This document shows, one piece after another, positions 5,336-60,807 of a stretch of DNA of 64,000 nt. Numbering within the stretch: the first letter of the stretch is position 1; the number at the start of each line of letters is the position of its first letter. The notes beneath the pieces were generated by a model. It was not told the origin of the DNA. It worked only from the letters and a program-made list of their open reading frames with translations, and did no database searches. A program made the position numbers and the translations under genes. The stretch is taken from the NCBI GenBank assembly GCA_024137785.1, contig JAHRHZ010000002.1, positions 13,429,947-13,493,946 of the forward strand, in the 5' to 3' direction. The stretch is from Ginglymostoma cirratum (lineage: Eukaryota).

Positions 5336-5359
5336 CTCCGGCTGTTGAAGGGTCGATGC
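5336..5359 (-). CDS. Microexon 23 (24 nt): GIDPSTAG
   Basis: ctcatttttatttgcttttcatgcag|GCATCGACCCTTCAACAGCCGGAG|gtacgt. Confidence 0.82.
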
Positions 5360-5809
5360 CTGCATGAAAAGCAAATAAAAATGAGAAAATACGTTTATGC
5401 CCGTAGAGTATTATAATTGAAAAGAATATCATTTAAAAATTCATTTTATACAATATGGACAATATACACAATAAGTGCTGTCTTTAATGATTTAGATTGT
5501 TAGCTCAGCTAAAATGTTAGTTCAATTTGCATATTGTGCAATATCAAAACATGCCTAAAAAGCAACTGAAGAAACGTATGTCTACATTTCAGCCGGCTTA
5601 TTATGACAATCATTGATGTGCAATGATTCCACAGCCATATTTTTAAGTATGTTGACGAGAAACAAAGCTGCCTTCCATTCTACGCACTTATAAGTAACAC
5701 GCTGTTTACCTTCCTGTCATTAAATACCCTACTTATCAGCCTTTCCTGACGGCCTTCCAGTTGGATCTTGGCAGCTTCACCACTCCCAGTTCCCAAGTTC
5801 CTGTATTTC

Positions 5810-7745
5810 TTAGAGTCATTGAGTCATACAGCATGGAAACAGACCCTTCAGTCCAACTCGCTCATACAGACCAGATACCCTAAATTGACCTAGATATATT
5901 TGCCAACGTTTAGGCCAAATCCCGCTAAACCCTTCATATTCATTTACCCATGCTGATGTTTTTTAAATGTTATTGTACCAGCTTCCTCCATTTCCTCTGG
6001 TAACTTGTTCTGTACATGCACCACCCTCCATGAAAAAGTTTCCCCTTAGGCCCCTTTTAAATCTTCCTCTTCTCACCTTAAGCCTATGTCCTCTAGCTTT
6101 GCGCTCACCCACTCCGGGGAAAACATCCTGCCTATTCACTTTATTTATGCTCGTCATGATTTTATAAATATCTATAAGCTCACACCTCATCTTCCAATGC
6201 TCCAAAGGAAATAGCCCCAGTATATTCAGCCTGTCCCTACAGTACAAACTTTCCAACCCTAGCAACATCCTTGTAAATCTTTTCCGAACCATTACAAGTT
6301 TCACAACATCCTTCCTACAGGAGGGAGATCAGAATTGCATGCAATATTCCCAAAGTGGCCTAACCAATGTCCTGTACAGCTGCAACCTGACACCCCAACT
6401 CCTATACCCAATGCACTGACCACTAAAGGCAAGCATACCAAACGCCTTCTTCAGTTTCCTGTATACCTGCGACTCCACTTTCAAGGAAGTCTGAACCTGC
6501 ATCCAAGGTCTCTTTGTTCAGCAACACACCCCAGGACCTTACCATGAAGTGTATAAGTGCCTTCATGATTCTGCTTTCCAAAATGCAGCACCTCACATTT
6601 ATCTAAATAAAACTCCATCCAGCATCTTCGACCCATTGGACCATCTGATAAAGGTCCTGTTGTACTCTGAGGTAACCTTCTTCGCTGTCCACTACACCTC
6701 CAATTTTGGGGTCATCTGCAAACTTCCTAACCATACCTCCTATGTCCATATCCATATCATTTATTTAAATGATGGAAAGCATTGGCTCAGCACCAATCCT
6801 TGTGGCACTCCACTGGTCTCAGGTCTCCAGTCTGACAAGCAACCCTTCACCACCACCCTCTGTCTTCTATCTTCGAACCAGTTCCATGTCCAATGGCTAG
6901 TTCTTCCATGTGATGTAACCTTTGATAACTAGTCTACCATGAGGAACTTTGCTGAATGCCTTACTGAAAACCATATAAATCATATCTATCGCTCTGCCCT
7001 AATAAATTCCCTTCGTTACTTCTTCAAAAAACTCAATCAATTTAGTGAGACACGATATCCCATGCACAAAGCCACATTGACTATCCCCAATCATCCTTTC
7101 CTTCCCAAATACAATGTGCCCACCACCGACATCAGGCTCACTGATCTATAGTTTCCTGGCTTTTCCTTGCCATCTTTCTTAACGTGGCACCATGTTAGCC
7201 TACCTTCAGTCTTCTGGCACCTCACCTGTGGCTATTGATGATACAAATACCTTAAAAAGGAATGTAACAAACACTTCCTTCACTTCTGACAGAATCCCAG
7301 GGCACACCTGATCAGCTCCCGGAAATTTATCCTCCGTTATGAGTTTTAAGACGTCCAGAACCTCTTCCCTTGTCATACGGACATTTTTTCAAGATGTTCC
7401 TACTTATTCCCCCACATTCTCTATCTTCCATATCCTTCTGCACAGTAAACACTGATGCAAAATAATCATTTGGTATCTCATCCATCTCTTGCAGTTTCAC
7501 ACGTATGTGGTCTTGCTGATTTTTAAGGGGCCCTATTCTCTCCCTGGTTACCCCTTTGTCCTTAATGTATTTGTAGAATCTTTTTGGATTCTCCTTAACC
7601 TCACTTGCCAAAGTTTCACGTCCCCATTTTTCCCTCCTGATTTCCCTCTTAAGTATACTCCTACTGCGATTATACTATTCTAGGGAACATATTGTTTCTG
7701 GAAGGCTTCCCATTTTCCACACGTCCCTTTACCTGTGAACATTCG
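5810..7745 (-). mobile_element. CR1 (HER1-like) LINE, 5'-truncated, frameshifted ORF2
   Basis: ORF pieces KENPKRFYKYIK..TRERIGPLK..NDYFASVFT and RKRFTRMLLGLESL..RLNILGLFPLE; 3' tail repeat tagagtcattgagtcata. Confidence 0.9.
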
Positions 7746-7889
7746 TTCCTAATCAACTAATCTTAAAAGGCAATCATCAATATGATATAGTTGATACTAA
7801 ACTCATACCACAGAATCGAGAAAATGAAGTATTGTCCCCTTTTTTTGCCCCTGTAATCTTCCAAATTGATTTACTTCTGTCTGGCGTTT

Positions 7890-9950: not shown

Positions 9951-10209
9951 CTTTGCTCGAGATCCTGTGAAAATACTACTTATCAAATACCACAGCAATT
10001 TGAGCTCAAATGCTAGAAAGAAGAATGGTTTTATCTGAACAGCATACATGTTAACACCACATTGGTTTGCAGCCCTGATCTTAGATGAAAAATTATTTAT
10101 GTTAAAGGAAAAGTGTTCCTCAAATCAAAATATTTTGAGTTCCAATAAAGGTATTTAACTATAAATGAAACAGAATGGTATTCTAAGAGAAGTGTAATAA
10201 ATGCCTCAC

Positions 10210-10245
10210 CAGCATCTTTAAGTTTTTCCTGCAGTTTTCCTATTT
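10210..10245 (-). CDS. Exon 22 (36 nt): EIGKLQEKLKDA
   Basis: atattcatttctgatttcag|AAATAGGAAAACTGCAGGAAAAACTTAAAGATGCTG|gtgagg. Confidence 0.88.
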
Positions 10246-12157
10246 CTGAAATCAGAAATGAATATAAACATAAGTTACGTGCAGTACACAGGCTGAGTAA
10301 AGATGATATGTTCTTTGAAAACTACTGATATTACAAAAATATTATGGCTACTTTGGAAAGCTATCTAAAGTTGTGGCTAATTTTTTTTTTCAATTGTGAA
10401 AAGGTGAAGCCGGGGAAAATAGCTCCAGGTCGGCTTCGACTGACTTGTGCAATGACCAAAGAGAAACTTATGCTTAATTCTGCCTAATTACTAGTAATAA
10501 GCAGTGCACATGACATGGAAGCTGAGCAGTGGTCCACCCGATCCCACTGCCATGTCACTGACCACTTCGAAGAGTATTGTGCCACCATAAGGGTAGGCAT
10601 ATTACTTGCACGAACTGGAGGTTTGACTTGGCAGGCCCTGAGGACACACAGCCCAACTGGCTGGTTGGTGTGAATCTTCAGATTGGGACATAGCGATCAG
10701 ACATTTTAAATGACCCGATTGGACTTTTTGTTTGAGATTTATGATTTGTAAGTTGTCTCGAAGTACAACAGACTAATGGTGTTTTGGCGAGTCCCTCAAA
10801 TTGTCAGTGGTGCCTCACCCTAGGGGCAAGTTGGAGATCTCTGTGTGACAGCAGAGGAGGTCATGACATTGCAGAAAGACTCTCCTAGTTTCAAATTTCT
10901 CATCTTTCCCACAGTGATTCTTTCATGTGAAAATCATATGCTGGTTCAGTAAATGTTCACTCTACTCTTTCGTAGTCTCACTGCGTTATCAGGATTAAAA
11001 GTGTAATTAGCGCAAGTAGTGAGACAAATATGATCCTGATATACCACAAAAAATGTTTGATTAGTTTCCTTGATTGTCTGCTCTCTTGCTTTCCTCTGTT
11101 TACTTAAAACCTATAGCTAATTATTGATTAACAAATAGCTAAAACTTCAAACTAGTGTCGCAGTGCCACAAATATCACAGAACAATTCCGACTTGCATTA
11201 CTTTCATAGAAATTCGACGTGGAATAGATGGATATTAAATTGTTTTTAGCAATTGCATTTTGTACTATCATCAAAACATCAGACCTTTATATATTTTAGA
11301 CCTGGGTAGTATGTCGCGTTCGCTTCAAGTTTTTCCACAGACCTATTACGTTTTGGCTTGCACTAAAATTGGAAATTCGCTATAAATTCTTTCATTCCAA
11401 TACGGCTCTGTAGAATACCTTGAACAAAAGCTAAATACTTTGAAGTCATTTTTACAAAATCATGAAAGCTAAAAGTTCATGTTGAATCTTTGCATGACTG
11501 TTTCATAAATTGCACATATCTGTATCTCTCATTATGGCATGTTAAACGTGTTAAACTGCTGAGCCTCTGGGGCACACATACGCTAAGTTCTCAAGAAAAT
11601 GTTATCTTTTTCACATTGCATTGCAAATTTTATAGTGTTGTGAAATGCCTTAATTACTGTCAAAAAAGAAAACACCCTGGCATAAAAGATTTGTTTTCTA
11701 AAATGAAGAGTTTCATTCCTTCATATTATATATTTGTTGAAGGACTTAAAATAATGTCAGAAATGATTTTTTTGCTTTTTCTTTCACTTGATATTTCTTT
11801 CCATCTCTTCCATCTTATGTGTATGAATTTGGATTGATTTCAATATTCCAATTTCTAGGGGAAAAAACCTTGCCAGTCTTGGTTGTTATTCTTCAACCCA
11901 GTTCATTAAGGAAACAAACAATTGCATCCTTTGTTTACTGAGGCCGCATGCTATCTGTGCTGTGCTAAAATAACTTGTTAATTTCAGCACCTAATGCCAA
12001 ATGCATTAGGAAACCAATGGCCCCATGCAGGAATTGTTGCTTTTGCTCATTCCAAACTGCTTGCAGATATGACTGACTAGGTGAGTCTAGTCTTGTTGTA
12101 ATGCAATTTTAGAAAATTAGAGAAGTGTAACAATTGAAACGTTGACAATATTAAATA

Positions 12158-12282
12158 ATGATGTTGAGGTGCCAGCGTTGGACTAGGGTGGACAAGGTCA
12201 GATATCACACGACACCAGGTTATAGTCCAACAGGTTTATTTGAAAACAGAATCTTTCGGAGTTTCACTGTTACTTCAGGTGT
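12158..12282 (-). mobile_element. Penelope-derived terminal repeat fragment with degenerate hammerhead core
   Basis: Contains gacaccaggttatagtccaacaggtttattt; minus strand reads cctgaagta...tccgaaag. Confidence 0.5.
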
Positions 12283-13443
12283 TATGAGAGGATGCTAGAT
12301 TGTCCTTTTGGTATGTATTTAAAGAACAAAGAACAAAGAAAATTTCAGCACAGGAACAGGCCCTTCAGCCCTCCAATTATACATGAGATCAAGAGATTGG
12401 CACTGATTTTGTGATGTCTGCATACCCTTTAAAATGTTTCTTTGGATTCCTCGTCAGTCTCAATGCACTGACCACGTACTAGTTATATTCGAAGTTTCAA
12501 CTTCCGGTGGGAAGTTTCACACCAGTCTGGAACTCGCCAAAAAGTGCTTGACCCTGAGTTACAGTCTTAGACTTTGGCTAGATCTGACCGAATAACTTGA
12601 ATAGTTAGCCAGCAAAGGCTAGAGGAGTTCAACTCTGAATTAGATTCCTGTTAAACAGACTGTCCCAGTGCTGCATATCATTCCATAGTCATTAGATGAT
12701 ATATATTGCACCTGAAAATGCACCACCGGAATTGCCACATGAACTTCACTCTGGCATGTGTTCAGGACATCACATATAACCACTCCACCAAACCCCTTTG
12801 ATGCCCCAACACCGCATCACCTCCAATCTGGGATCAAATTAACTCCAATCCTCAGACCTTTCCCGAATTGTCGACCACCTTGTGCTCCCCTTATTCGACC
12901 TTACCAGCCCCATCTATACCATCACCAATCTGCCACCCGATTTACTCTTTCTCTTCTTACCCTATCATTCTCCTGAACCTGCCATCCTACCAACTCTGCC
13001 ATCCTATCAATTCTTGCACCTTATGGACCTAGACATCCTTCCCCCTTTACATACTTGCATCATCCTATCTCCTTACCCACTTAACAGTCTTGCAGTAATT
13101 CAGAGACATACTGAAAAACTTTCCATTTTTCATAGTGTTCAGGGTGAGGGTAAATCAATTAATTTTCCAAAATATGACTGTTCTTGCTATAAAAGGGACA
13201 CGTCTTCGCTGGAACTGGATTAAAGCACCTTTCTGCATCAGGTGTAATGTGGTGATACAGGTGATATTGTACTTCAGGTCCATGACATTGTATTGCTGCC
13301 TTATTCATCAGATGGTATTATAATAATGCCATGGACATGACATGTAGATATCTTGCGGTGATCATTGACCAGAAAATTTCGTAAGTAGTTTGCCACATTG
13401 TGGAGGCTTGGGAAACTACATACATATATTTTAATTCATTTAC

Positions 13444-13470
13444 CTATGTCTTTTACAAGCAGTTGTCTCA
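13444..13470 (-). CDS. Microexon 21 (27 nt): MRQLLVKDI (repeat C)
   Basis: ttgataactttcatttcag|TGAGACAACTGCTTGTAAAAGACATAG|gtaaat. Versus the 27438 copy: two synonymous changes and one L>V. Confidence 0.9.
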
Positions 13471-14329
13471 CTGAAATGAAAGTTATCAAGTTAATGTATT
13501 AGTTATAGTTGAATTTGTGAAAGAACGTACAAAGTAACTTAATTGTGAATATAATATTCAGTTTGTATATTAATTCATTCTCGAAAATTGCAGTTTAAAT
13601 GTCACATTAATGATTTTCGATTATACATTTTATGAAAGAAATATTTTACAACTCAGTACAGACTTGGAAATTAGATTTCAGGGTATGTGAACAGTATATG
13701 TGCTGTCACATATACTCTCAATGTAAACTCTTAAGGTAGGTATGAATGTTGTATCAAATCCACTAAACATTGACACATTAGTTATGGAACAGTATTTGCT
13801 CTTCACTGATCCCACAAAACAGCATGTCAGAAAGGAAGTTCTTGCTGAGAATAATACTGCTTTGTAATTTGCAAAAATAAATGTTAAAAAGGAAAGAAAT
13901 TGAATCCCAATAGGCTGAGCCTGAAAATCGGTCTCATATCTAGTAGGAAAGTGACTTTTCCTCAGTAATTGTTAATCAGTACATCTGCGAAATCCAGGAC
14001 ATTACATCATCTATGCTCACTACGTATCTATGTACTCGATGTATTATTCGAAGACAATGATTGAACATGGTAGTAGAAAGTGATTACTGAATTTACACAA
14101 TGGTGGATTCATATTTGTAATCAGTAGACCAAAACATGAAATTACAGCTGCGTTCTTTCAGTGAAAGTTTGTGGAAAAAAAAACTGACTTATTTCATTTT
14201 TGATTTTGCAAAGAAGGGAATATCTCAGGTTTTGTAGTGCAGATATGCATAGAGAATTAAAATAGCTGACAGAAAATAATCCTGTATTCTGAGAAAAAAA
14301 TACACAAGTGCATATGATATGCTTTGACT

Positions 14330-14910
14330 ATTCAGTGTATTGGAGATGTCACATCTTGAATACTTTGCTTAGTTTTGGCCTTATTGCTTGAGGGATCAGG
14401 TAAATGAAGGCGTTGAGACGAGATTTTTGATGAATTTATGCTTGATACCTGAGAAGTGCAGGTTACCTTTTAAGAAAGTTTGGATGTCTGGGCTTGTTTC
14501 CACTGGAGTTTAGAAGAGCGAGGGCTAACTTGATTAAGTATGTAAAATCCTGAATGGTTTTGACTCAGTGGACTTAGAATTGATGTTTCTTCTTTTACGT
14601 GAGAGCAGAGTTAACCTGTAGGGTTTTGAATTGAAGAATCATCCTTTTAGGGTTGAAATGAACAGAATTTGTTGCTCAAAGGTTTGTGCATTTCTGATCC
14701 TTCTGCCTAAAAATATGGTGAAAACTGAGTTGTATTTCTTTAATGTGGAGGTAAGTAGATTCATGTGATGTTGGTGAATCATGGGTTATTTAGAGTAGAA
14801 GGGAATGTAGAATTAGAAGCAGAAATAGATCAATCACTATTTCCTTGGATGTTGGAGTGGACTGAAGCAGGTTGGAGCAGTCAGCTGAATCGCCGAATTC
14901 TGCTCCTAAT
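14330..14910 (+). mobile_element. Decayed CR1 3' fragment
   Basis: catcttgaatac..ttttggcc, gggcttgtttccactggagtttagaaga motifs of the CR1 ORF2 C-terminus. Confidence 0.7.
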
Positions 14911-15229
14911 TCATAAATTTGGATATGCTATTAGTGGGGATTCAGCATTCTGCTTGGTTTATCGTAAATAGTAGGATGTCATTCAACAACTTAGTTTCAT
15001 TTAACGTCAGTGTTGTAGTTACCCTAAAATAAATCGGGTCTTTCAATGATATATCTCTTTTGAGTGTATCAGATTGTTCCATCAATTGAAATGCCGGAAT
15101 CAGATTACTTTATTGAAGCAACTACAGTTTTGAAACTTTGTCCGTGAAAACACTTTTTTTATTTTCACAAATGAAAGAAGTGAATTTTATGAACCCTTAT
15201 TATGAATAAAACTTTAAATAATTTCTTAC

Positions 15230-15256
15230 TGCTTGCTTGGAGAAGTTTTTTGCATT
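15230..15256 (-). CDS. Microexon 20 (27 nt): ECKKLLQAS (repeat C)
   Basis: tttttattatttttctag|AATGCAAAAAACTTCTCCAAGCAAGCA|gtaaga. Confidence 0.9.
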
Positions 15257-16081
15257 CTAGAAAAATAATAAAAATGAATAATAGTGCAGTTAATAAATAA
15301 TAATGACAATCATGTCTGTGACATATGACAGATGGATGAAGATGCTATGCATCTAAAATACCTGATCTACTCAAGGTTATTGAAAACTTGTCACAAAATG
15401 TAACCTCTAATCGGTGCTTTCGGAAGATCAAGTTGGTACTTTTGATAGACTTGTAACTGAGGTGCATGTGATAATGATTAAGTAGTGCAACTAGCAGGTG
15501 TGTCGTGGTTTTGCATGAAATTCTATGTGCTGATATTACATGCAACATGAGTCAAAATGACCTTGGCAACACGTTTTTGGAAATTGAGCCTGGTAGATTG
15601 CAAGTGCTGCTTTTGATTTAGAACTGCATGCAAGAATCTGAAGAGATTAAACTCAATGTGGATAAAACATATCTTGTACATTCTTCTGTCAGTTGCCAAA
15701 CATTGTCTTTGGATTAACTTTGCCTTCAGTTCAGAATGTTTTTTTCGTCCAGTGCATATTATTAGTAATAGATCCAGTTCCATACAATGTTGAGTTGAGA
15801 AATCATTCATAGAGCACACGGTTTCTTAATATAAGTTTAGTTTGCAAGAAGGATGCATATTAACAATGAAACCTGGTGAAGTAACCAGTGCATGTATTGT
15901 TTGAAATACTTAGATAAATTGGACGATGCCAATTTTGAACAAAGTTTCTGCAAATTGGATGAAAAAAAAACTGTGGTCAAAACAAAGAATAGTCAAGTTA
16001 TTCAGGGATATTCTATCCTGTAAATTTCTTATCACAATGACTGGATGCATTCATGCCCAACAGGAAACACATCATTTATTT

Positions 16082-16675
16082 GGAGATAGTGGGAACTGCC
16101 AATGCTGGAGAATTTGAGATAATAAGGTGTAGAGCTGGATTAACTCCGCAGGCCAAGCAGCATCAGAGGAGCAGGAAGGCTGATGTTTCGGTTCTGNNNN
16201 NNNNNNNNNNNNNNNNNNNNNNNNNNNNNNNNNNNNNNNNNNNNNNNNNNNNNNNNNNNNNNNNNNNNNNNNNNNNNNNNNNNNNNNNNNNNNNNNNNNN
16301 NNNNNNNNNNNNNNNNNNNNNNNNNNNNNNNNNNNNNNNNNNNNNNNNNNNNNNNNNNNNNNNNNNNNNNNNNNNNNNNNNNNNNNNNNNNNNNNNNNNN
16401 NNNNNNNNNNNNNNNNNNNNNNNNNNNNNNNNNNNNNNNNNNNNNNNNNNNNNNNNNNNNNNNNNNNNNNNNNNNNNNNNNNNNNNNNNNNNNNNNNNNN
16501 NNNNNNNNNNNNNNNNNNNNNNNNNNNNNNNNNNNNNNNNNNNNNNNNNNNNNNNNNNNNNNNNNNNNNNNNNNNNNNNNNNNNNNNNNNNNNNNNCAGA
16601 ACCGAAACATCAGCCTTCCTGCTCCTCTGATGCTGCTTGGCCTGCGGAGTTAATCCAGCTCTACACCTTGTTACA
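16082..16675. mobile_element. Penelope-derived fold-back element spanning a 400-N assembly gap (16197-16596)
   Basis: 16124-16196 and 16597-16669 form a perfect 73-bp inverted repeat; same family as 34390, 51120 and 63781. Confidence 0.85.
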
Positions 16676-17489
16676 TCATTTATTTTGTCGGTTTAAATTA
16701 GTGTCTTGAGAGGGCAAGAATTCAGCCTCGTTATGTAGTGCCGTAGATTTTTTTTCACTTTCGTGCAAGGTTTGCTGCTGCTGCTACTGTTGTATCTACT
16801 ACAGGCGATCTGCTGTGGTTGTATGCTATATTTAACTGTTTTGTGGTGTACTCACACATCCATTATAGCTTGCTGCAACAGATCTGTCCCTTAAGCTAAG
16901 TATTCATCTACATTGCAAAACATTGACACAGAAATTCATCTTGTGCATAATTGTAAAATTAGCTTCATCAGATTGATGTCCTTTATATTCTATCTGATAT
17001 TCATTTTTTAAAAGCAATGCATTGTTGCAGATTATTTCCCCTCGTGCAGAAAATGGGACCACATGTAATTATGAAGCATTTTTCACTTCCACTTAAGATG
17101 ACAACATGTCATCATTAAATATATTAGCTGAAAATTTCAAATGTTCCCCACAGGTTGTGCCAGTCGTAAAAGTGTCATCCGTAAAACAAAAACTATAATT
17201 CAATTTCTCCATGGCTTTCCTCTCCCCTATTTGCAATAATTTTGACAGAATGTTTCAGGAAATCTTCCCTAAAAGGTGAAATAAAATTATGATGGCTGGG
17301 TAATGAAATGCACTGGTGCTCACACCAGATATGGATTTGCAATATCTTGAATATTATCATACCAAGGAAACCAATTAATATGTTGGAAAACAATGGAATA
17401 GAATGACAAAAGGCTATAAAATGAAGTTTAAAGAATTAAAAAGTGAAGGTTTTATTCAATCAGTTTTATAATTTGCCATAGTTTTGACT

Positions 17490-17920
17490 TTCTTTGATTA
17501 ATTCATGGGATGAATGCCGCACCAACTAACTAGTTATCATTGAGAAGTTGGTAATGAGCTATCTACTTGAAGCACTGGAGCCTATTTCAATCTGATAGGT
17601 GCACAATGCCATTCTAGGGGGAGTTCCAGGATTTTGATCCAGTGACATTGAAAGCACAGTGAAATCTCTGCAAGTCAGGATAATGGGTGTCTTGGAGGGA
17701 AACTTGCATGTGTGTTGCCCCCATCTTCTGCTGCATTCTTTCTTCCAGGTAGCAGAGAAGGTGCGTTTAGAAAATTTTGCCAATGGAGATTCGTTGAATT
17801 TACGCAGTACATGTTGCAGATAGCATATGGTGCTGCTGCTGTGCGTTGGTATTGGAGAAAGTGAATGTTTGTGGTTATAATGTGAATCAAGTGGGCTGCT
17901 TTGTCCTGGATGGTGTCATT
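17490..17920 (-). mobile_element. L2/CR1-clade LINE 3' fragment
   Basis: Homologous to 950-1160 and 42830-43040. Confidence 0.65.
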
Positions 17921-18321
17921 TTCATAAGATTAAAATAAAACTATTATAGTAACTTTTAAGTCATGCATTATGTTGAGGACATATGATGAACTATTTGAGA
18001 TCGGCATATTTACAATAACGTGCAAATATCCAATGACCACATCATGTTCAGTGAAAAATCATTGCATCTCCGAGAGACAAGTGCGAACAAAAACAGGGAA
18101 GTTCAAGTTAAGGTATATAGTAACATATATGAAAGAGATTCTGACGAAGTTTGTAATATTAAGCAGTTTGTGCACATTTGGCCAATGTACTCTGATCTTC
18201 TTTCTCACAAATGACTGCCTTTTCACATACACGCTTTTCATCAGGTTGTTGTTTCACACAATGTGAACAGTGTTTTTTCGACGTGAGTACAAATAAACAA
18301 TAGAGCACAGGAAATGCTTAC

Positions 18322-18345
18322 CTATGAATTCTTGCTGATCACTTT
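18322..18345 (-). CDS. Microexon 19 (24 nt): ESDQQEFI
   Basis: attaattttgtgctttctcgcag|AAAGTGATCAGCAAGAATTCATAG|gtaagc. Frames 0 and 2 contain stops; phase 1 is open. Confidence 0.85.
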   Translation of the reverse strand, partial: KVISKNS

Positions 18346-20135
18346 CTGCGAGAAAGCACAAAATTAATCTTTTCTGATATCAATACAACCATGTACAAAT
18401 ATACCTTAATATTATTTAACATTATATCCATAAGTTTACAAGATTGTTTTTTTTCGCAAAACCCTGTATGTCTGCTGAATGCCAAAGCATATAACATCAC
18501 GTATTGTCACGTCACGTACTACATCAAATACATTTCATTGACTCACGATCGCAAAAATGTACTGTTAAGTGATACATTGTGGTTGTGGAATAAAAACCTC
18601 AGAAGTGCCGAATTGCAATTTCAGTCTTTCATTATGTTTCTACTCAAACATGTTAAAAAAAGAGAGCAATTAAGTTTACATCGATTGTTGAAAATTAAAC
18701 TGTATACAAAGTTACGATCAAAAACCTTGTTTGCCAGTATGGAGCTGATGAAATCCAAAGAAATGTCGTTGCTATTTGACTTGGCAAGCCTTATAAGCAA
18801 GAGCCAAAAATATTGAAAATAGCTTTTGGGCATTATTGCAAAGCAGAGGCCTTCAGAATGGCCTTTGCTTTTTGCTGTCCCGATGTTCAATAAGATCACT
18901 TCCTGCGATGAAGCAGGGAAATAATTGGGACATGATTACGTGCACCCGGTGTCCCAATAAACCGTTATCTTATTGAGCAGTAAATATAAGGTTTCTAGGT
19001 TTTCATTCTCTAAAATTTGCATTCCTGCTGAACGATAAAGTATGCCACTGTGCTCCACGTTGCAATAGAAATGAACATAGGGTTGGATGCAGTTTTGTGC
19101 CGTGAACTATGACCAATTTCTATTTCAATCTGCCTGCTCAGTTTGAAGATCTCCACCAAATGGCGTTATCAGCACTCTGCTGATAACACTTAAGGCAGGG
19201 AAAAAAAATAGTCACGAAGGATCTCCCAGTTATGACGTACTGTGGCTGAAAAGAATTTGTACCCTGTACTCTACCCAGAAGGTAGCCTTCTTTTAATAGG
19301 GGCTGCACAAATTCTCAGTGGGAATGAAATCATTACCTCATAAGCACAGCTCTGAGATTAAATTCGAAAACAAAATGAATAGGCTGTGGATAATCCTTCT
19401 GGCAGGTTCAATCTTTACCACCTGCTTTACTCTGCAGCCCGAGACTAGGTTTTACTTGATGAACCATAATTATGATTCTCAGAAGTTGCTACTCAACTGA
19501 ATTTCAACCCATTCACAGTGAAAGCATCTCTGGTAAACGCACCATAATATGGTTAAACAAATTTTCCACCATTTTATTTCTGTAGCCATCACAATATTCG
19601 ATGTTGCGATTTGAATTTCGTTGTGAATTAGATGTTTTCATTGATGTGACCGTGATGGAAAATTCTTGAAATCCATGGCTAAACGCATTGTAAGAGGATG
19701 TTGTGAGCTTTTCAAAATAAAAAATCACCGCGTGTGCTTCCTGCTGTCATGTTTAAAAATGTGTTGTAAGATCAAAACAATCTTCAAAATATGTCCAGTT
19801 ACTCGTTTCCCTCATGGCACATAGACCAGTGTCCTCAGTATCAACTGATTTCACCATTGCTGGTGACGAGTAAGGAGCTTGCATTATGATGATTGTCCAC
19901 GAACCGTGGAGACCTTACGCATGTTGAAATGTTAACAGCTTTTGCCCATTGCAATGCATATCTGGTGATAATCTGATGTTCTGATTTTTCTTACTACCTC
20001 GCATAAAAGTCAGTTTAACAACTGTTGGGGAGGGACCTTTAAATTATAAGTTAGGCAATTCACGCTATGGAAATGATTCATTTACGCAATAGATTGAAAT
20101 AGAAACTCTAAAGATAATAATTAAATCTGCTTTAC

Positions 20136-20156
20136 CTGAAAATTTCGTTTTTGATC
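20136..20156 (-). CDS. Microexon 18 (21 nt): GSKTKFS
   Basis: caccttcttctacattcaag|GATCAAAAACGAAATTTTCAG|gtaaag. Counterpart of GPKGKVL. Confidence 0.8.
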
Positions 20157-20239
20157 CTTGAATGTAGAAGAAGGTGTTGTAAGTTAAAACTTTATTACGT
20201 AGATGTTTAACACAACCTCTGGTTAAACATGCACCCTCC

Positions 20240-20580
20240 GTCTTCTGTCTGAAATTGAGCAGTTTAAGAACCATTGTTCTCTGATGATGTGAAGGTAATT
20301 ATGAGAGCAGGTTGAAAAAAGGACATCATGACTTAACAACGGCATGAAAATAGGTTAACTGAGTGACAAAAGTTCGGGATTTGTCGCAAAATACAGGAAA
20401 ATGTAATCTTGTGATCGGTAGCAAAGTACGGTAGGAAACAGTACATTGATTAAATAGAGGCAGATTGCAGAACGCTGCAGCGCAGGGGGATCTGGGTATT
20501 ATGGCAAATGCATCACAAGCAGTGTTATGCAGTAACATCAAGTGAACAGGAAGGCGATAAAAACATTATTATAGTCGAGT
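20240..20580 (+). mobile_element. CR1 RT fragment
   Basis: tgtctgaaattg..gatgatgtgaag; aaatgtaatcttg; cagcgcagggggatctgggt (DLG motif). Confidence 0.6.
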
Positions 20581-20738
20581 ACAGTGGCTTGAAAATGCAC
20601 AAATGCCCATGATTTCAGAAGGATGTGGATGATATGAAAATGCAATGGACAGACAAAAAGGATGACGCGGTGGTACATCAATGAAATGCTCACACGTTTC
20701 ATTATAAGCTACATGCGTGTCAACTCGTAATATCTCAC

Positions 20739-20774
20739 CTGTTCCAGATACACGATCTTTTAGTTCTTTAAGCT
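20739..20774 (-). CDS. Exon 17 (36 nt): ELKELKDRVSGT
   Basis: gtgttatctgttctttcacag|AGCTTAAAGAACTAAAAGATCGTGTATCTGGAACAG|gtgaga. Aligns with EINALQERMSGE. Confidence 0.88.
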
Positions 20775-21094
20775 CTGTGAAAGAACAGATAACACAAATG
20801 CTGATAATTAGTCATTTGTTTTAGCATTCTGCATAGTTGTAAGGATGTGTTGTGATTTGCGGTTGCAAAAATTATTGCTATCTTCACCTGGAATTGAAAA
20901 CGTATGTACAAATAATTAACTACTGGATATCCCAAAACCCTATTACTGAATCAAAATAAAGGCCATTGTTAACATGCAATACATTTTATTTTGCTGGATA
21001 ACTTTTCTGTCTAGGCGTTATGTTCCAACATTTTAAGAAGTATGGGTCAAAATTATTAAAATCTGGAACAAGCAGGCTAACTGAATTCTTTTTC

Positions 21095-21355
21095 ACATTC
21101 TCCCCTTGTCTGCGTGTGTTTCCTTCTGGTGCTCCGGCTTACTCCCACAGTCCAAAGATGTGTCAGTTAGGTTGATTGGCTATGCAACTTGTCCTCAGTG
21201 TCAAGGAAATTGTGGATGGATTAGCCATTGGAAATAGAGGTTTGCAGGGATAGGGTAGGTAATGGGTGGGACTGGGATGTTCTTCACAGGGTCTGTATGG
21301 ACTTGATGAGCTGAATAGCCTGCTTCCACATTGTAGGGCTTCTCTGATTCTGTAA
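21095..21355 (+). mobile_element. HE1/V-SINE, 5'-truncated
   Basis: V-domain ggtgctccggcttactcccacagtccaaagatgtg..gttaggttgattggc plus a CR1-like tail. Confidence 0.85.
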
Positions 21356-21664
21356 GCACACACTCGTCTGGTGAATTAACAGTTCTTTTTTGTAGGATGA
21401 GTCAGCAAAAAAATGAACTCTAAGACTCCAGTCTCTATTTGCCCCGCTGATCGAAGGGGAACATCAAAACTCACATGACTAAGACAGATGCTTATGGAGC
21501 TGTCGAATGCCAATGCAAGATGCCTATGCAACATTCCAGCCTTTGTTTCGGTAGAAAAACTTGTTCAAAAGAATTTGTTAGCCACTTCTGAAATTCAGCA
21601 AGAACCTGCCTGTGCACTGATAAGTTAACTGTTAGTCGTTGCACAACGTGCAACTTATTCAAAT

Positions 21665-21855
21665 AAAACAAAGAACTGCGGATGTCAGAAATCTGAAACA
21701 AAAACAGAAATTCTGGAGAACCTAAGCAGGTCTGGCAGCAACTGTGGAGAGAATGCAGAGTTAACGTTTCATACCTAGTAGCTAGGAAAACGCAGTATAT
21801 ATGCTGAAGGCTGTAATACTACCAGACCTGCTGAGTGTCTCCAGCAGTTTTTTTT
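21665..21855. mobile_element. Short fold-back element (second Penelope-derived family)
   Basis: ctggagaacctaagcaggtctgg ... ccagacctgctgagtgtctccag inverted arms; relatives near 2200, 47950 and 58150. Confidence 0.65.
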
Positions 21856-24800: not shown

Positions 24801-25143
24801 GTCGGAGCAGCATGGGGGTGAGTTGTTGTGTGGGTGGCCCCTAATTTGTGTGTATGCCAAAGACATACAAATCCAATTGTTATCCCAACTGGGAACTCTT
24901 CTTGCGCTACTAGATCACAGCATCATAAAGCTAATTTGTGTTTCTGCACACTGGAATCTACGTCATGTCTGGTTTCTTTGAACTTAACGAGGGACACAAT
25001 TGAATAGACAACGGATCCTTAAGTAATTTTCACAAATAAATTTCATTTGAATTCCTCCTAAATGCAGCAGAACAGTCTTTATCTTCCTGCTTTGAATCAA
25101 TACAAACCATTTAGGTAGGAAATGGAATTGAAAATATATTTAC

Positions 25144-25170
25144 CATCTTCTTTTGTACGCAGAACTTCCG
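25144..25170 (-). CDS. Microexon 16 (27 nt): AEVLRTKED
   Basis: ttaacatacacttatgttcctgcag|CGGAAGTTCTGCGTACAAAAGAAGATG|gtaaat. Same size and K position as the MRQ-type exons. Confidence 0.82.
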
Positions 25171-26013
25171 CTGCAGGAACATAAGTGTATGTTAAAAGAT
25201 GATTGTAAAATAAAAGGTCACGTTTCTGCTCGAAGACTTGGAATATGAATCAAACATGTTGTAGAAAAAAATGAATCTTAGTGACAACATGAAATTTCGT
25301 AGGAAAAAAAGTGTTTTCTTTAGAATATTTAGCAAATTGAAAAAAATACACTTGGAACAGACTGTTATTTCAGAAACCTGCGTAGAAATGTAAGGTTTAT
25401 TCCGGGAAACATCTGTGATGATGTAACTATTTTGGATCCAGATAAATGAAGGATAATTAGAATACTGAGTTACTTAGATGATGAGTTTTTATGATGTCAA
25501 TTAGTAGTATTATTTTGTTTTCAGGTACATTTGACTAATTTGTTAGATACAACTAGCTTCAGGAAATATTTAGCCAGAAAGTTCGATAGTAACGCGAACG
25601 TTTTCGTGGATGATGAGAATATGTAAAATAACAAGCATACTAACAGCTTGGCTGAATATTAGGGTAGATGTTGGCTTTTGATATCCGTTAGTGGTGCCGA
25701 AGTGAGGGTATATTTATTTTCACTCTTTCCCAGAAGCGAAAGAGTGAAGAACTGTAGGATTAAAATAACATGAATATTCTATTCATCCGAGAGTGGAGCA
25801 ACCAACAGATGTCACAAATTCAATCCAGAAGAAGAAGACATGGATATTTCTCAAGATTGCTCAAGTTTGTAAAATGTGACCAGGCAGCCTTGATTTTTGT
25901 TCCAAGTGGACATATAAAAATGAGATGCTCTGCAGCTGAATATTTTTCGAGAAAATATCATGATATTTAATTCTAAGAGCAACAGGGGGAAAAAAAAATC
26001 TGAATTGTCTCAC

Positions 26014-26049
26014 CAGCAGCCTGTAATTGTGCAAGTAATTTTTCTATCT
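26014..26049 (-). CDS. Exon 15 (36 nt): EIEKLLAQLQAA
   Basis: ttaatctttatttcag|AGATAGAAAAATTACTTGCACAATTACAGGCTGCTG|gtgaga. Paralog of the exon at 10210. Confidence 0.87.
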
Positions 26050-26519
26050 CTGAAATAAAGATTAATATTAAGGTCATCTTATTTGATAACAATGCCCAAA
26101 TATACCATGAACACCTGTGTTAAATGTTAATGGCCGAGTAAGAATGCATTGTCCAGTAATTCATTCTGAGCAGCAGCACAAACCAGAGAGTGTTTCATTT
26201 TCCGAGTTGAAATCAGGTGGAATGAAATATAGTGTTCCATTTGATTCTGCCAGTTCTTCAACATGCCACAGAGGGACTTAATTCCATTTCTGCAGCCGTT
26301 CATAGAACAGGTGGACGGTTCGATTTGCCAGTCTTAAAAATGATTCTGGGGAGTTGCAACGTTCATTGATATTCATTTCTACTTAGAAAACCAACGTATT
26401 TGTTTGATGAAAAATCATCGAAGAGTTATTGCATTGGAGAATGTGAAAACTCATAAGTTTTGGGGCCTCATTTAGCTATTAGGCGCTGATAAATTTCAAA
26501 TATTACCAACTTCGCATTC

Positions 26520-26595
26520 AGGCTAGGGCTTGTTTCATGATTAGGGCTAAGGTTAAGGTTAGGGTTAGGTTTAGGGGTTAGGGGTTTGGATTAGG
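26520..26595 (+). repeat. Degenerate (TTAGGG)n-like array
   Basis: ttagggctaaggttaaggttagggttaggtttaggggttagggg. Confidence 0.8.
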
Positions 26596-27437
26596 AATAA
26601 TTATGATTAATTGCACCCAATTTATTTCCAATTGAACTCAGTAGAAGAATGTGTTGCTTAATTGCCAGACAAATTAATATTAAAACTTTTGCACTTTCAA
26701 CAACATTACAAATATTTTGTCCAGCTTTTAAGTTTCGATGGTAAGTTAAACATGCACATTATATTTTCTTTCAGAGTCAAAGCTGTTCTGATTCACCATT
26801 GGATGCAGGAGGTGACTATTTCAGTTGCACTGATACTCCAGAAATTCAGTTCAGTGTTTTTTTTCTGTTGAAATGTTCTTGACATGATAAATAAGCACCA
26901 AATTCATCAGGAAAAAGGAAAGGCTGTCCATTTCAAGACAAGTACACTTTTAACAGTGTTTTGACAGTGTAATTCATGCCAATCCTCTCTTGCATCAAAT
27001 ATAATCTTAACAGTTTTGATTCTTCAGCGGGAGAGCTTAAAGCAAAGTCAATTTAAATTTATTTTTAATGCTTTTCTTTATGACTTTTCTGTCTCCTTAG
27101 TACATTTTTTCCACTCTCTTAGTCGTAAAGTTGAACTAAAACAAAACCAACATTTTTATCAAAATGTTCATGTTGGTTCCAAACAGGGGATCTTTCATTT
27201 TCACAGCTTGAGTTGTGTGTTATGGTTTCAATTAATGTTGCGATATATTGAATTATCACAAAAGTTTATGAACAACGAATTTTAGACAGTCTTATAACAG
27301 TTAGCAAACTATGCAATATTGGCTATGACCTAAATGTTATATGGAGAAATAGGGCATGGAAAGTACAAAGGAAATAGTAAGAAATGCAAACAGATATGCA
27401 TTTAGAAGATGAAGTATTGTTATTCCATCTAAATTAC

Positions 27438-27464
27438 CGATATCTTTTAAAAGCAGTTGTCTCA
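27438..27464 (-). CDS. Microexon 14 (27 nt): MRQLLLKDI (repeat B)
   Basis: cctaacattaccttgctgatttgtattacag|TGAGACAACTGCTTTTAAAAGATATCG|gtaatt. Confidence 0.9.
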
Positions 27465-28547: not shown

Positions 28548-28574
28548 TGCTCGCTTGAAGAAGTTTTTTGCATT
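28548..28574 (-). CDS. Microexon 13 (27 nt): ECKKLLQAS (repeat B)
   Basis: caattccttacttctcag|AATGCAAAAAACTTCTTCAAGCGAGCA|gtacgt. Differs from the 15230 copy at two synonymous sites only. Confidence 0.9.
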
Positions 28575-32321: not shown

Positions 32322-32345
32322 CTGTATATAATTCTTCCAGGTTCC
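32322..32345 (-). CDS. Microexon 12 (24 nt): GNLEELYT
   Basis: ctaattagttgtccaccttatcacag|GGAACCTGGAAGAATTATATACAG|gtacaa. Same slot and size as ESDQQEFI in the next repeat. Confidence 0.72.
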
Positions 32346-34131: not shown

Positions 34132-34152
34132 CTAATACTTTCCCTTTTGGTC
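34132..34152 (-). CDS. Microexon 11 (21 nt): GPKGKVL
   Basis: ctactgatttctgtgttttag|GACCAAAAGGGAAAGTATTAG|gtaagg. Frame 0 ends in TAG; phase 1 is open. Confidence 0.85.
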   Translation of the reverse strand, partial: DQKGKY

Positions 34153-36971: not shown

Positions 36972-37007
36972 CTTCACCTGACATCCTTTCTTGCAATGCG
37001 TTAATTT
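36972..37007 (-). CDS. Exon 10 (36 nt; 30 nt if the internal gtgaag donor is used): EINALQERMS(GE)
   Basis: gctaacttcctatgcttacatgtttttaacag|AAATTAACGCATTGCAAGAAAGGATGTCAGGTGAAG|gtaaaa. Consensus branch point ctaac; 36 nt matches the paralogous exons. Confidence 0.85.
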
Positions 37008-38827: not shown

Positions 38828-38854
38828 CTGCTGTCTTTTGCAGAATCTGTCTCA
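38828..38854 (-). CDS. Microexon 9 (27 nt): MRQILQKTA (repeat A, MRQ exon)
   Basis: ttgctcattttctttacag|TGAGACAGATTCTGCAAAAGACAGCAG|gtaaat. Paralogous to the exons at 27438 and 13444. Confidence 0.88.
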
Positions 38855-40894: not shown

Positions 40895-40921
40895 TGGTTT
40901 TTTGCAGAAGTTCCTTGCATT
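40895..40921 (-). CDS. Microexon 8 (27 nt): ECKELLQKT (repeat A, EC exon)
   Basis: ttatgctattttaaag|AATGCAAGGAACTTCTGCAAAAAACCA|gtaagt. Paralogous to the exons at 28548 and 15230. Confidence 0.88.
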
Positions 40922-54392: not shown

Positions 54393-54416
54393 TGGTAATC
54401 ACTCCTTTCTTTAAAT
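54393..54416 (-). CDS. Microexon 2 (24 nt): DLKKGVIT
   Basis: atatttctttattttag|ATTTAAAGAAAGGAGTGATTACCA|gtaaga. Counterpart of the ELKGTTKT exon. Confidence 0.7.
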
Positions 54417-57390: not shown

Positions 57391-58149
57391 ATTTATTAAA
57401 GAAGGGAACAGTTAATATGGAGATGCTAATCTCTGAATCAAACCTAAATTGTAGCAGAGACAGAGTCCATTCTGGATGGATTGCTATAATTAAAGCTTAC
57501 ATGGAGTTGCACTAATTTTCACCAGAATTTCCCTGATTTTGTAATATTTATTTATGAAATCCACAATCCCATTAGAATTGTTTCTTATTCTGTTCCTATG
57601 TTCTGCCATTTTCACAGATCAGTTCCTATTAACACTGAGCACTCTGTCTGTCCTTAGAAGCCTTTTGCAACTTTGTTATTAAACTATATGGTGTATCATA
57701 ATACCAAGTGCTGAAATGCATCGCTTCACTGTTTCTAATGTTTAATTAAATGTAATACTTCTGTGTCTAATTTGTAAGACAGTGATCCTAGCAGCTGATC
57801 TTGGGGAATATTATTGTTTATCATTCTTTACTCCAGATCATTTACCACCATACCTGTCTTTAAACTACACATTCTGAGATCTACACTTCAAGGGATTGAT
57901 CTCTTACATGACCCTAAATGTTATTAACCTCAGTTTCACGTGGTATCTTAGTTAAAGCTTACTTACACCTGTCATCACCTTCAATAACTTAATTTGTTAT
58001 TTCATCAAAACAATTAAATTAAGCCAGTGTGTCAAGATCTGTCTGTACAAATAAATAAACACTACTTAAATATTCTAAATTACTTCAAATTTGCCTGAAG
58101 TCTTCCACAATTATGATTCCTGATGCTAAATCACCATCACTTTTAAAGT

Positions 58150-58318
58150 CAACAAAGAACCATGGATGCTAGACATCTGAAGCAACAACAGAATTACTGG
58201 AGAAACTCAGCAAGTCTGACAGTATGTGCGGAGAGAAAGCAGAGTTAAAATTTTGTGTCTAGTGATTCTTCTTTAGAACGTTAATTCTGCATTCTCTGCA
58301 CAGATGTTGCCAGACCCT
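58150..58318. mobile_element. Short fold-back element (family of 21665)
   Basis: gtctgacagtatgtgcggagagaaagcagagttaa / ttaattctgcattctctgcacagatgttgccagac inverted arms. Confidence 0.7.
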
Positions 58319-60783
58319 TGCATTAAGTCAAGGCTTTACAATTATAGAAAAAAAAAACATTCGGAAATCTGCTGACTGCACCTGTCTTATTTTAGCATGT
58401 GGATTGCCATTCGTTTCAACAAGGCGACTTACCTTGCCCAGAATATCGCCTTGCTATCACCACACACCCAATACAGCATGCTTATCAATTGGCGCAGCAA
58501 CCATTATCCCTAATGAAGTTGCTTACATCATTGTGTGTCAACACGTGTTTATTCGTGGTATTGAAAATCACATATCATGTATTCTAACCTATACTCCACT
58601 TCTAAGCACTTACCTTAAATGACACTATCTCATATCCTGAAACTTGCTGCTGTTTGGAAAGGTTTTCATTGACTTTTATGTTTGATGCCACCTTATTTTC
58701 ATGTTGCTACATTGTCTGTCTAATATTTCTCTTCAATTTCGCTTTTAACATATTGTATTTGATCTGGTTTTGGCTGGAATACTTGACCTGATATGGCATC
58801 ATTGTCCTTTTCTTAGACGTCATTTTCTTTATGTTTTCAGTAATCCAATGGGTCTTGTCTTTTTTCTCTTTTTATTCTTACTTGGTTATAGGAGTCTCTG
58901 GCTGCACTGGAATTCATTCCTCTTCTCTACTTCCTATACCGTTCTATTCAGCGGTTGTTATAGTGCACATTGACTGCATCTGAAAAACAAAAAGTTGCTT
59001 GTTGTCCCCTTACATTGGGTCCTATCAGACATATTACCTTGTATTAATCCTCTCACATCTTATTGAAAATTTCTGCCCCCAGTCGAGAAGATCTGTTGTA
59101 GATTGTCTGCCCTTGCTCATCACTAAATTAAACCTTTTGAAATGATTGTGCCACTTGCACCATCGCTATTCCACACTCCTCGTACTTAGTCCAATTCATC
59201 CATCACTACCCCCATTCCTACGTACAGCACCTGTGATCTACTTAAACTGAGAATATTCTGAAAAATGAATTTTTCATGAACACACCTCCAAATCCATCCA
59301 TTCCTGATCACTTACCCTAAAATGCTGCATTCAATATTTGAGTAATTCAATTCTCCCAGCATTACTATACGATTTCGCTTTTCCACCTTTGTTATTTCAC
59401 TGTATAATAGCACATTTACCTTTTGGGAGGTGCGGCTATAGGCAGAAATGCCCATTATGACCTGATCAGTATGTTCTTGGGTACTTCATGGAAATGGGCC
59501 ATCCCTCCACACTTCTTTGTTAAAGAAAGCCAATCCTTGTGAATGTTGATTGCCAGCCTGCAGCTGCTAGAGTTTCTGACTATGTGTGGTCACCAACAAT
59601 TAGTAGCTTACTTACACATCTATCGGCACAATGGTGGCTGTTGGCCAGTTTGAGGAGTGGTTCTTTTTACGAAGGATTGTAACTGCGGCCAGAGGATTTT
59701 GTTTTTGTTAAGCAGATCTAAAACTGATAAGATGATGTTTCATGTTGGAAGTAAACTCGAGTTCTGCCTCCGACAGTGGTAACATCCTATTTGATAGCTG
59801 TCCTTTACAGGCAGAAATCCATTATAATGTTCTTCAATAAAGAGTACAGAGAATTCAGAAAAAAAAATCCTTAGGAAAATAATAGAAGACACTTTCTATT
59901 CACTACCACAGGGAATGGTTGTTCTGATTCAAAGGGATGAATTTAAGGGAAAGTCGGGGAAGCATTTGATAGATGAAACATTTATGTTTAACAAGATGGC
60001 AGCTGACTTGAGTGAAGCATAGACATGCACGTAATCAGGTTGGGCAAAATGATTGGTTTTGTGCTCTATATTACGTATTATTCAGATAATAAGAACAGAA
60101 AATGTCATCCTGTCTGTTTCACTGATCTCCATTCATGTTCCCTCTTCCAGTTTATCAGCTTCTGTACTTCCTCCGAGACTTTGTTACCTCTTAACTTGAG
60201 TTTATGACAATGTTTTCTGTCAGGTATGCTTATTCCAAGTTTGTTGAATTCCTGGGTGTTTTCTTTCCGTTCTTTCTTCTACTTTCTCCAATTTCTGCCC
60301 AGAATTCCGGACAGTTTTTAATTTGTGGGGCTCCCTTTGCCCTCAGGCTCGATTTCTTTTACTATCTCTGACATTTCGTGCCTCTGCCTGTTGTGCAATG
60401 TCAACACAACAAATTAATTCAGTACGTTCTTGGTATCCCAAGGGTTAAAATGCACTCATGTTTGAATGGCTGTTATCATGTTCAAGAGAGAAAGAAAACC
60501 GCAAAACAACAACCTAGCATTCAGTGAACTTATTAAAGCCATTGTTCAAAGCTCAGTTTACTATGGCAGTAGAAATTATTGTTATTAATTGGGCATTATG
60601 AAGTGTTTGTTCCAAACGTTTGCTTACTTGAGAGTACAAAACAAAATTAGAAATCAAAAGCAAATGGATTTACATCAAAAGGTGTGAGGTGACGCTAAAA
60701 AATATGTTGCGAAACGTATTTGAATATGGGAAATTGCGTTATATATCATCTGTTAATGCACATACCCATTTTGAGTACGCTAC

Positions 60784-60807
60784 CTGCGATTTCTTTTATC
60801 TTTTGAA
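60784..60807 (-). CDS. Microexon 1 (24 nt, phase 1-1) of unidentified coiled-coil microexon-chain gene: xQKIKEIA
   Basis: Minus strand ctaatgtggtgctttattttcttattttgtcag|TTCAAAAGATAAAAGAAATCGCAG|gtagcg. Branch-like ctaat and a pyrimidine tract. Same size and pattern as the AEKIAELK exon. Confidence 0.75.

Follow-up and report, generated by a model that had tools for sequence, protein, structure and literature searches.

Long coiled coils assembled from strings of micro-exons are known from the chicken BG genes, for which the available parts of two accounts (PMC5938342, PMC8813856) describe heptads running over the exon junctions, variation in splicing, linkage with the major histocompatibility complex (MHC) along with a soluble form reported to regulate actin and myosin, whilst the available part of the second of these (PMC8813856) gives the tail plan of butyrophilins as heptad repeats followed by a B30.2 domain. 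Micro-exon heptads, as well as heptads in front of B30.2, are already known from these two families. In the TRIM family, clustering near MHC genes is described in the accessible part of one source (PMC3137616), and that of another (PMC4455283) has TRIM20 gain avidity through dimerised B30.2 domains on an antiparallel scaffold 170 Å long. Here we analyse a stretch of 64,000 nucleotides (nt) of Ginglymostoma cirratum DNA (contig JAHRHZ010000002.1; G000:C2:13429947-13493946 in a 4.36-Gb genome), referred to as the window, which forms the middle of a giant minus-strand gene built of micro-exons and ending in a B30.2 exon. The product of this gene, in the reading that we consider probable, would be a soluble cytosolic protein of ~1,460 amino acids (aa): a long, dimeric, jointed tether with a C-terminal B30.2 domain and a relative of the butyrophilin/BG tail that lacks both RING and membrane segment.

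The window holds 25 minus-strand, frame-symmetric phase-1 exons of 18-36 nt. The full gene model extends over 329 kb with about 9.5 aa per exon and comprises 133 coding exons (4,377 nt, 1,458 aa), 131 of them micro-exons, which is a minimum count; its frame is open, with a single stop at the end and none within. The micro-exons are of few sizes (72 of 27 nt, 31 of 36, 16 of 24 and 12 others) and their donors are GT in 129 cases and GC in two. All 131 are frame-symmetric, as an earlier, sequence-only reading of the window had claimed for every exon it saw, although the search admitted only such exons. The B30.2 exon is what identifies the gene; it lies outside the window, as does exon 1, and so could not be seen in that reading, whose coordinates span less than one fifth of the gene. 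Throughout, genome position equals 13429946 plus window coordinate, and coordinates outside 1-64000 carry the same numbering beyond the window edges.

That such tiny exons are real was borne out in several ways. Of the 11 peptides quoted in the sequence-only reading, six stand uninterrupted on the minus strand, with AG on one side and GT on the other, whilst the other five cross junctions or have a split codon at their start. A homology-free splice-site scan of the window gave 19 symmetric exons among 34 candidates on the minus strand (17 open) versus six among 29 on the plus strand (three open), and upon extension by 200 kb on each side (464 kb) like exons were found from about +227 kb to -94 kb, with 119 minus-strand candidates versus 47 on the plus strand. 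A collinear chain against catshark proteins reached a score of 3,788 (135 members), whilst a plus-strand control scored 770 and one with the reference reversed 1,355; control chains also gather more than 100 weak members, and the signal lies in the score and the abutting junctions rather than in member count. Few reference residues were left unexplained by this search. The resulting model is identical to catshark at 693 of 1,077 residues (64%), with 112 of 125 junctions abutting exactly; for the window exons, 24 of 25 were placed by homology (123 of 186 residues identical) and the GKGKPSKYD exon by splice sites only. Two same-species contig sets matched window 10001-30000 mainly in repeats, and none of the 15 joints listed (of 16) coincides with a predicted exon junction, a comparison that has no bearing on expression. 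The exons of the window and the two outer exons are as follows, in the order of transcription:

G000:C2:13660477-13660608 (230662-230531), minus strand: first coding exon (ATG); ATG context and S. torazame match
60784..60807, minus strand: 24-nt micro-exon, coil (VQKIKEIA); homology chain; the gene runs on upstream beyond the window
54393..54416, minus strand: 24-nt micro-exon, coil end (DLKKGVIT); homology chain
53830..53847, minus strand: 18-nt micro-exon, linker (TGPKDC); weak homology, Cys not kept in catshark
52183..52209, minus strand: 27-nt micro-exon, coil; splice-site scan and homology
49755..49781, minus strand: 27-nt micro-exon, coil; homology chain
47287..47310, minus strand: 24-nt micro-exon, coil; splice-site scan and homology
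44160..44183, minus strand: 24-nt micro-exon, coil end/linker; splice-site scan and homology
41721..41747, minus strand: 27-nt micro-exon, linker (GKGKPSKYD); splice sites alone
40895..40921, minus strand: 27-nt micro-exon, coil start, Cys at d; homology and register assignment
38828..38854, minus strand: 27-nt micro-exon, coil; splice-site scan and homology
36978..37007, minus strand: 30-nt micro-exon, coil end; splice-site scan and homology
34132..34152, minus strand: 21-nt micro-exon, linker (GPKGKVL); splice-site scan and homology
32322..32345, minus strand: 24-nt micro-exon, coil start; homology chain
28548..28574, minus strand: 27-nt micro-exon, coil, Cys at d; homology and register assignment
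27438..27464, minus strand: 27-nt micro-exon, coil; homology chain
26014..26049, minus strand: 36-nt micro-exon, coil; splice-site scan and homology
25144..25170, minus strand: 27-nt micro-exon, first half of an extra 21-aa pair; homology chain
20739..20774, minus strand: 36-nt micro-exon, second half of the extra 21-aa pair; splice-site scan and homology
20136..20156, minus strand: 21-nt micro-exon, linker (GSKTKFS); splice-site scan and homology
18322..18345, minus strand: 24-nt micro-exon, linker/coil start; splice-site scan and homology
15230..15256, minus strand: 27-nt micro-exon, coil, Cys at d, duplicate of 28574; repeat D9 and homology
13444..13470, minus strand: 27-nt micro-exon, coil, duplicate of 27464; repeats D10, D16 and homology
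10210..10245, minus strand: 36-nt micro-exon, coil; splice-site scan and homology
5336..5359, minus strand: 24-nt micro-exon, linker (GIDPSTAG); splice-site scan and homology
688..708, minus strand: 21-nt micro-exon, linker; splice-site scan and homology; beyond the span of the sequence-only reading, gene continues downstream
G000:C2:13331711-13332234 (acceptor -97712), minus strand: terminal B30.2 exon; Pfam, structure and fold match

At the 3' end of the gene, the phase-1 acceptor at -97712 opens 173 codons that encode a B30.2 domain. This exon matches the Pfam SPRY profile (expect value (E) 4.5e-12), with the PRY profile unmatched, and its best sequence match in the PDB is the B30.2 domain of BTN3A1 (E 3.8e-21, residues 5-161, near full-length). 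Folded alone by AlphaFold2, the domain reached a predicted local distance difference test (pLDDT) value of 88.8 and a predicted template modelling (TM) score of 0.86, and Foldseek placed this model with TRIM7 (E 5e-13), TRIM21 and BTN3A1 at TM-scores of 0.73-0.80 and 20-29% identity; within the full-length AlphaFold2 model, for which a three-row alignment with unrelated tails was used, the same domain stays below a pLDDT of 50. Triadin, CCDC7, elastin-like proteins and the neck of CD23/CD209-type lectins had been considered and were dropped once the B30.2 exon appeared.

Relatives of the gene are present in public databases under a variety of names. Its orthologues are a 945-aa Scyliorhinus canicula record (XP_038671249, 'zinc-binding protein A33-like'), two S. 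torazame records covering the N-terminal part and the middle (XP_072329363 and XP_072329362) and eight isoform records from Narcine whose names are those of golgins or trichohyalin, whilst carpet and basking shark records are mostly B30.2-only and named 'butyrophilin-like', 'TRIM39-like' or 'A33-like'. The B30.2 domain is 95% identical to the whale-shark record over 94 aa, ~85% to bamboo and epaulette shark records and 59% to catshark, the last value being about equal to that of the rod. These relatives have a WxxMLWN-type motif in common and, in a FastTree phylogeny of 157 B30.2 domains (omitting 11 redundant rows and domains shorter than 110 aa), a long branch with support 1.0 unites 15 sequences, which come from sharks, rays, chimaera and two further assemblies; the sister of this clade is placed with supports of 0.14-0.36. 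Three large genes of this clade occur in the G. cirratum genome, two of them on the MHC class I contig: the present gene and a paralogue of the same micro-exon build at 14.67-14.79 Mb (G000:C2:14671600-14785000), ~20 kb from an RRM gene on the opposite strand that we take to be RBM4-like. The third, of like build (G000:C141:2651500-2995000), covers more than 340 kb, running on past the edge of the stretch analysed, and has many 36-nt exons with Cys and some 15-nt exons. The contig shared by the first two bears 25 of 28 MHC class I matches, the nearest ~3.4 Mb away, and ~63 of 82 B30.2 matches; a search for MHC class II beta gave no match anywhere, controls included. The catshark orthologue lies on a 163.47-Mb sequence, a size equal to that given for the MHC II beta-bearing chromosome 13 in the available part of PMC9992475, and from this match in size we infer that the two are the same.

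In comparison with chicken BG and the BG-derived soluble 'zipper protein', the shark gene likewise has a long coil made from strings of micro-exons, a split first codon, heptads across junctions, conserved Cys in the coil, length variation, alternative splicing and MHC linkage. However, BG exons are mostly of 21 nt, one heptad each, in sets of 27-37, whereas in the shark gene 27-, 36- and 24-nt exons maintain register only in combination and form a string of more than 130; moreover, BG has an immunoglobulin (Ig)-V domain and a transmembrane segment and no B30.2, whilst in the shark gene we find a B30.2 and neither Ig domain nor transmembrane segment. Butyrophilins (BTN3A1, BTN2A1) share the heptad stretch followed by a C-terminal B30.2, and it is on this domain that names such as 'BTN1A1-like' rest, but their coil is a few heptads compared to ~1,250 aa here, no IgV, IgC2 or transmembrane part was found in the shark gene, and the shark B30.2 is 25-29% identical to BTN3A1 and falls in its own clade. 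Class IV TRIMs (TRIM7, TRIM21, TRIM39, A33) have in common with it a coiled coil, the PRY-SPRY fold and clustering near MHC genes; they differ in RING and B-box, not found here, and the shark rod is micro-exon coded and several times the length of the TRIM20 scaffold, with no match to the TRIM_CC profile in Pfam. For Ig (IgV and IgC2 included), RING and B-box domains, none of 99 open reading frames (ORFs) of at least 80 aa across the 60 kb that surround and precede exon 1 (to 53 kb upstream) gave a match, a scan that would miss exons in shorter ORFs, and none was found among 11 orthologue and paralogue records. Giant coil plus PRY-SPRY proteins of other chordates (ESM Atlas clusters of 1,277, 1,579 and 1,802 aa; P0060) share this plan, a very long coil followed by B30.2, with many isoforms on record; for P0060, the one compared, rod similarity is no better than E 0.013 and the B30.2 lies outside the WxxMLWN clade. 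P0060 is a coil of 1,479 aa that carries two PRY-SPRY domains, and P0109, with coil and PRY-SPRY, is likely a membrane protein of type II (transmembrane segment assigned by eye); both represent B30.2 architectures outside TRIM and butyrophilin. In its working the shark protein would resemble the butyrophilin/BG tail or a TRIM that lacks RING, whilst belonging to neither family.

The sequence-only reading had proposed a segmented coiled-coil rod, and heptad periodicity, register assignment and AlphaFold2 helices all support this. The hydrophobic period peaks at 3.5 and, using a script of our own that ignores exon edges, 85% of residues 1-1284 fall in register in 25 heptad segments; the register score of the real exon order (437) exceeds that of shuffled exon orders (344 ± 16, maximum 379, n=25) and of residue shuffles (231). 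The motif KxxE[IL]xxL was recovered six times in the 212-aa window part, exactly as written before (shuffles: mean 0.11, maximum 2, n=2,000), and 16 times across the rod, compared to 0.74 in residue shuffles and 9.8 ± 2.2 in exon-order shuffles (maximum 16 of 2,000): the motif arises in part because a G ends each phase-1 exon and gives Glu at junctions, Glu being the junction residue in 72 of 131 exons. Exon edges keyed to the heptad register are supported by the finding that residue 2 of the 12-aa exons occupies position a in 27 of 31 cases and that of the 9-aa exons position f in 40 of 72. Adjacent exon pairs total a multiple of seven residues in 53 of 130 cases (36 ± 4 in 5,000 shuffles, maximum 52), the commonest pairs by length in aa being 12-9 (25 times), 9-12 (25 times) and 9-9 (32 times). 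The 27+36-nt pair, present in the window at 25170-25144 / 20774-20739 where it had been described, is likewise supported as a repeat unit that keeps register.

Duplication of exons can be seen at the DNA level: two exon pairs in the window are duplicates (76-80% including flanks). The repeat families D9, D10 and D16 consist of duplicated coding exons with their splice flanks (13427-13497/27421-27491; 15220-15258/28538-28576/40885-40923) and are a trace of block duplication within the gene; a perfect inverted repeat, I1, proved to be an artefact of N letters. Between species, the S. torazame rod has one additional 21-aa unit, most other shark-shark indels lie within or adjoining linkers, and of seven differences to the ray model one is a multiple of seven. 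As for the linkers, which the sequence-only reading held to be dedicated exons, enrichment exists and yet is modestly above chance: seven exons have at least two Gly/Pro compared to 3.1 in shuffles (maximum 9 of 5,000), and between helix-break edges and exon edges the distance is 1.7 residues versus 2.3 expected (P ~0.04). AlphaFold2 gave for the catshark orthologue long helices broken at stretches that match the five linkers of the window, at low confidence (pLDDT 54.7), and a dimer prediction for catshark residues 125-460 scored 0.06, readable neither way. The N-terminal rod retrieved only generic coiled-coil clusters from the ESM Atlas, with no agreed family.

Exon 1 has an ATG in good context followed by 39 acidic, Tyr-rich codons and ends in phase 1. 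This head is 71% identical over 41 aa to the S. torazame (cloudy catshark) model, in which the first coil exon follows exon 1 immediately. By simple hydropathy no signal or transmembrane segment was found in the model (maximum over 19 residues 0.72 before B30.2), and Cys is absent from the first 254 residues. Intron 1 contains five hydrophobic stretches over three frames and no phase-1 exon at transmembrane hydropathy (best 1.27); one open, transmembrane-like stretch on its coding strand (L037:5440-5560), for which no in-phase splice sites were found, is probably due to chance.

Taken together, the protein that we favour would consist of the 39-aa head, a ~1,250-aa rod of ~25 heptad segments with short flexible linkers, and B30.2. 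Leu/Ile at a together with Leu at d leads to a parallel two-stranded coil (the GCN4 rule), and with Leu/Ile at a and Leu at d two chains would zip in this manner to give a rod up to ~160 nm long (0.1485 nm per residue). The paired B30.2 domains at one end may bind a repeated ligand by avidity whilst the head or rod docks elsewhere, such that the protein would serve as a long jointed tether or scaffold, analogous to the intracellular part of a butyrophilin or to a chicken BG tail minus its membrane anchor. The rod may have grown via tandem duplication of register-closing exon sets (27+36 nt being three heptads), with exon symmetry preserving the reading frame and selection on exon order preserving the heptad.

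Several points weigh against this reading. Support for the exon junctions is second-hand, from predicted database models of other species, and in these the gene is broken up: S. torazame has two adjacent records, the S. canicula record is truncated at its 5' end and those of carpet sharks are B30.2-only; head, rod and B30.2 stand in one chain in none of the database records examined. Nine of the 135 chain members were removed (seven were weak, one gave way to a longer version and one belonged to the last exon), and five exons were added by hand on splice-site strength. One further exon, of 36 nt at -86782 and matching a bamboo-shark record, surfaced after the model was built, in a relaxed search of five catshark-only stretches that gave nothing credible for the other four, and unreadable stretches of N may conceal a small number of others, among them at a place where 22 catshark residues stay unmatched. 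The register was assigned by our own script rather than by Marcoil or DeepCoil, and Lys is the second commonest residue at d (35), which is unusual in a tight zipper. The identity of the B30.2 domain to catshark, near that of the rod, does not suggest a fast-evolving pathogen sensor. Furthermore, the Tyr-rich head resembles, by eye, a type II receptor tail, a skate paralogue model opens with a signal-peptide-like stretch, and oligomer state, location and ligand of the protein are assigned by inference.

Some of these points fit an extracellular protein, either secreted or a membrane rod of type II, its anchor exon having been missed, with d-position Cys in inter-chain disulfides and B30.2 facing outward. 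Such a placement would suit the head and the hydrophobic leader of the skate model, the one transmembrane-like stretch in intron 1, P0109 as an unnamed protein with tail, transmembrane segment, coil and PRY-SPRY, the Cys of ECKxL retained in orthologues and one paralogue, the many Cys-bearing 36-nt exons of the C141 paralogue, and the placement of 11 of the 14 Cys of the rod at d, a position that allows cross-linking (the register script slightly favours Cys in the core, without preferring d to a). We nevertheless consider it unlikely: phase-1 exons in intron 1 stay below transmembrane hydropathy, the S. torazame model lacks a membrane segment between exon 1 and the first coil exon, and the C2 paralogue has no long hydrophobic exon candidate between its first micro-exons and the RRM gene upstream. 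Sequons are at chance (5 versus 4.9 expected) and Cys is conserved no better than Leu (10 of 12 versus 87 of 100). A cytosolic protein keeps its Cys reduced. Disulfide linkage of the rod, which the sequence-only reading had suggested, is doubtful because neither a signal peptide nor a membrane segment could be found; of the Cys it placed near the start of four helical blocks all four are present and three are conserved in both catsharks, but that of TGPKDC is Leu in catshark. Elsewhere in the rod a CxxC (G000:C2:13365065-13365088) has both Cys kept in two catsharks and, lying between coil segments, might bind metal or act in redox chemistry.

A second alternative, compatible with the cytosolic tether, concerns the proposal that rod length is actively tuned by skipping heptad-preserving sets of exons. 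All 131 micro-exons keep frame, the 53 adjacent pairs described above are register-neutral, and the ray orthologue has eight isoform records and three paralogues have three to five each; exon skipping as such is compatible with these records. However, frame symmetry is not register symmetry: only six of 131 exons keep register if skipped alone, and internal isoform differences are of single-exon size, namely 8, 11, 12, 23 and 8 aa (ray) and 9 aa (bamboo shark) in orthologue records, none of the six a multiple of seven, and 6, 16, 9, 9, 18, 9 and 7 aa in paralogue records, one of seven. This comparison excludes alternative first and last exons and is one of predicted models, which may reflect splicing noise. 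Tuning of length in this manner, as proposed in the sequence-only reading, thus fails to find support in these differences and seems to us distinctly improbable.

It is very unlikely, in our view, that the described part is the cytoplasmic tail of a giant butyrophilin or BG protein with leader, Ig and transmembrane exons further upstream. The ATG-bearing exon has an acceptor whose phase, 1, agrees with the frame, MHC class I lies on the same contig, and heptads followed by B30.2 are the butyrophilin tail plan in the available part of PMC8813856, but the Ig scans of ORFs up to 53 kb upstream and of 11 related records were negative and the S. torazame similarity begins two residues before the Met. 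That the span represents two or three adjacent genes, as in RefSeq for catsharks, where S. torazame has separate records and XP_038671249 begins mid-rod, is scarcely credible, since both S. torazame records align to the S. canicula record, which thus spans the two (they cover 12% and 62% of it, at 89% and 83% identity), and the exon chain crosses the RefSeq breaks without stop or phase change; the B30.2 exon closes with a stop followed by AATAAA-type signals.

Around the gene, the downstream neighbours are a RING gene, presumably RNF183/225-like (L016:3-638, minus strand), and ribosomal protein S5 (L019:9716-10000, plus strand), with a canonical B30.2 exon further downstream at C2:13.196 Mb. 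Upstream of exon 1 (L039; L060:8624-9953) lie decayed retroelement pieces (RVT_1, integrase zinc domain) and a long ORF that by eye resembles the end of a Penelope-type element. Introns in the window contain short degenerate TTAGGG-type arrays (26541-26595 and 37478-37514), and repeats resembling short interspersed nuclear elements, in inverted pairs with short spacers (34396-35586, 51124-51800, 63782-63995; class assigned by eye), were also observed.

A description of the gene or its clade was not found in literature searches, although supplementary gene lists of shark genome and MHC papers may name the locus; the available parts of PMC12841164 and PMC13701976 do not mention it. Because every public record examined splits the gene or names it for another family, it is easily missed in surveys of shark immune genes. 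Beyond the cytosolic tether itself we tentatively put forward, as a possibility rather than a probability, that these genes constitute a small and ancient giant B30.2 family specific to cartilaginous fish, partly MHC-linked and with an exon-level heptad grammar, whose members are free-standing counterparts of butyrophilin/BG tails and in which single-exon skips break register and tune bend and partner choice, not length. If so, the rods would be molecular rulers of at least 150 nm, with a grammar of 27-, 36- and 24-nt exons at preferred heptad positions, and the family could show the heptad-B30.2 module before it joined Ig and transmembrane parts (butyrophilins) or RING and B-box (TRIMs). The gene offers a clean natural test of how duplication of exons respects coiled-coil register; it also adds, on the shark MHC class I contig, a B30.2 lineage with neither RING nor Ig, which is relevant to how butyrophilins, BG and class IV TRIMs arose.

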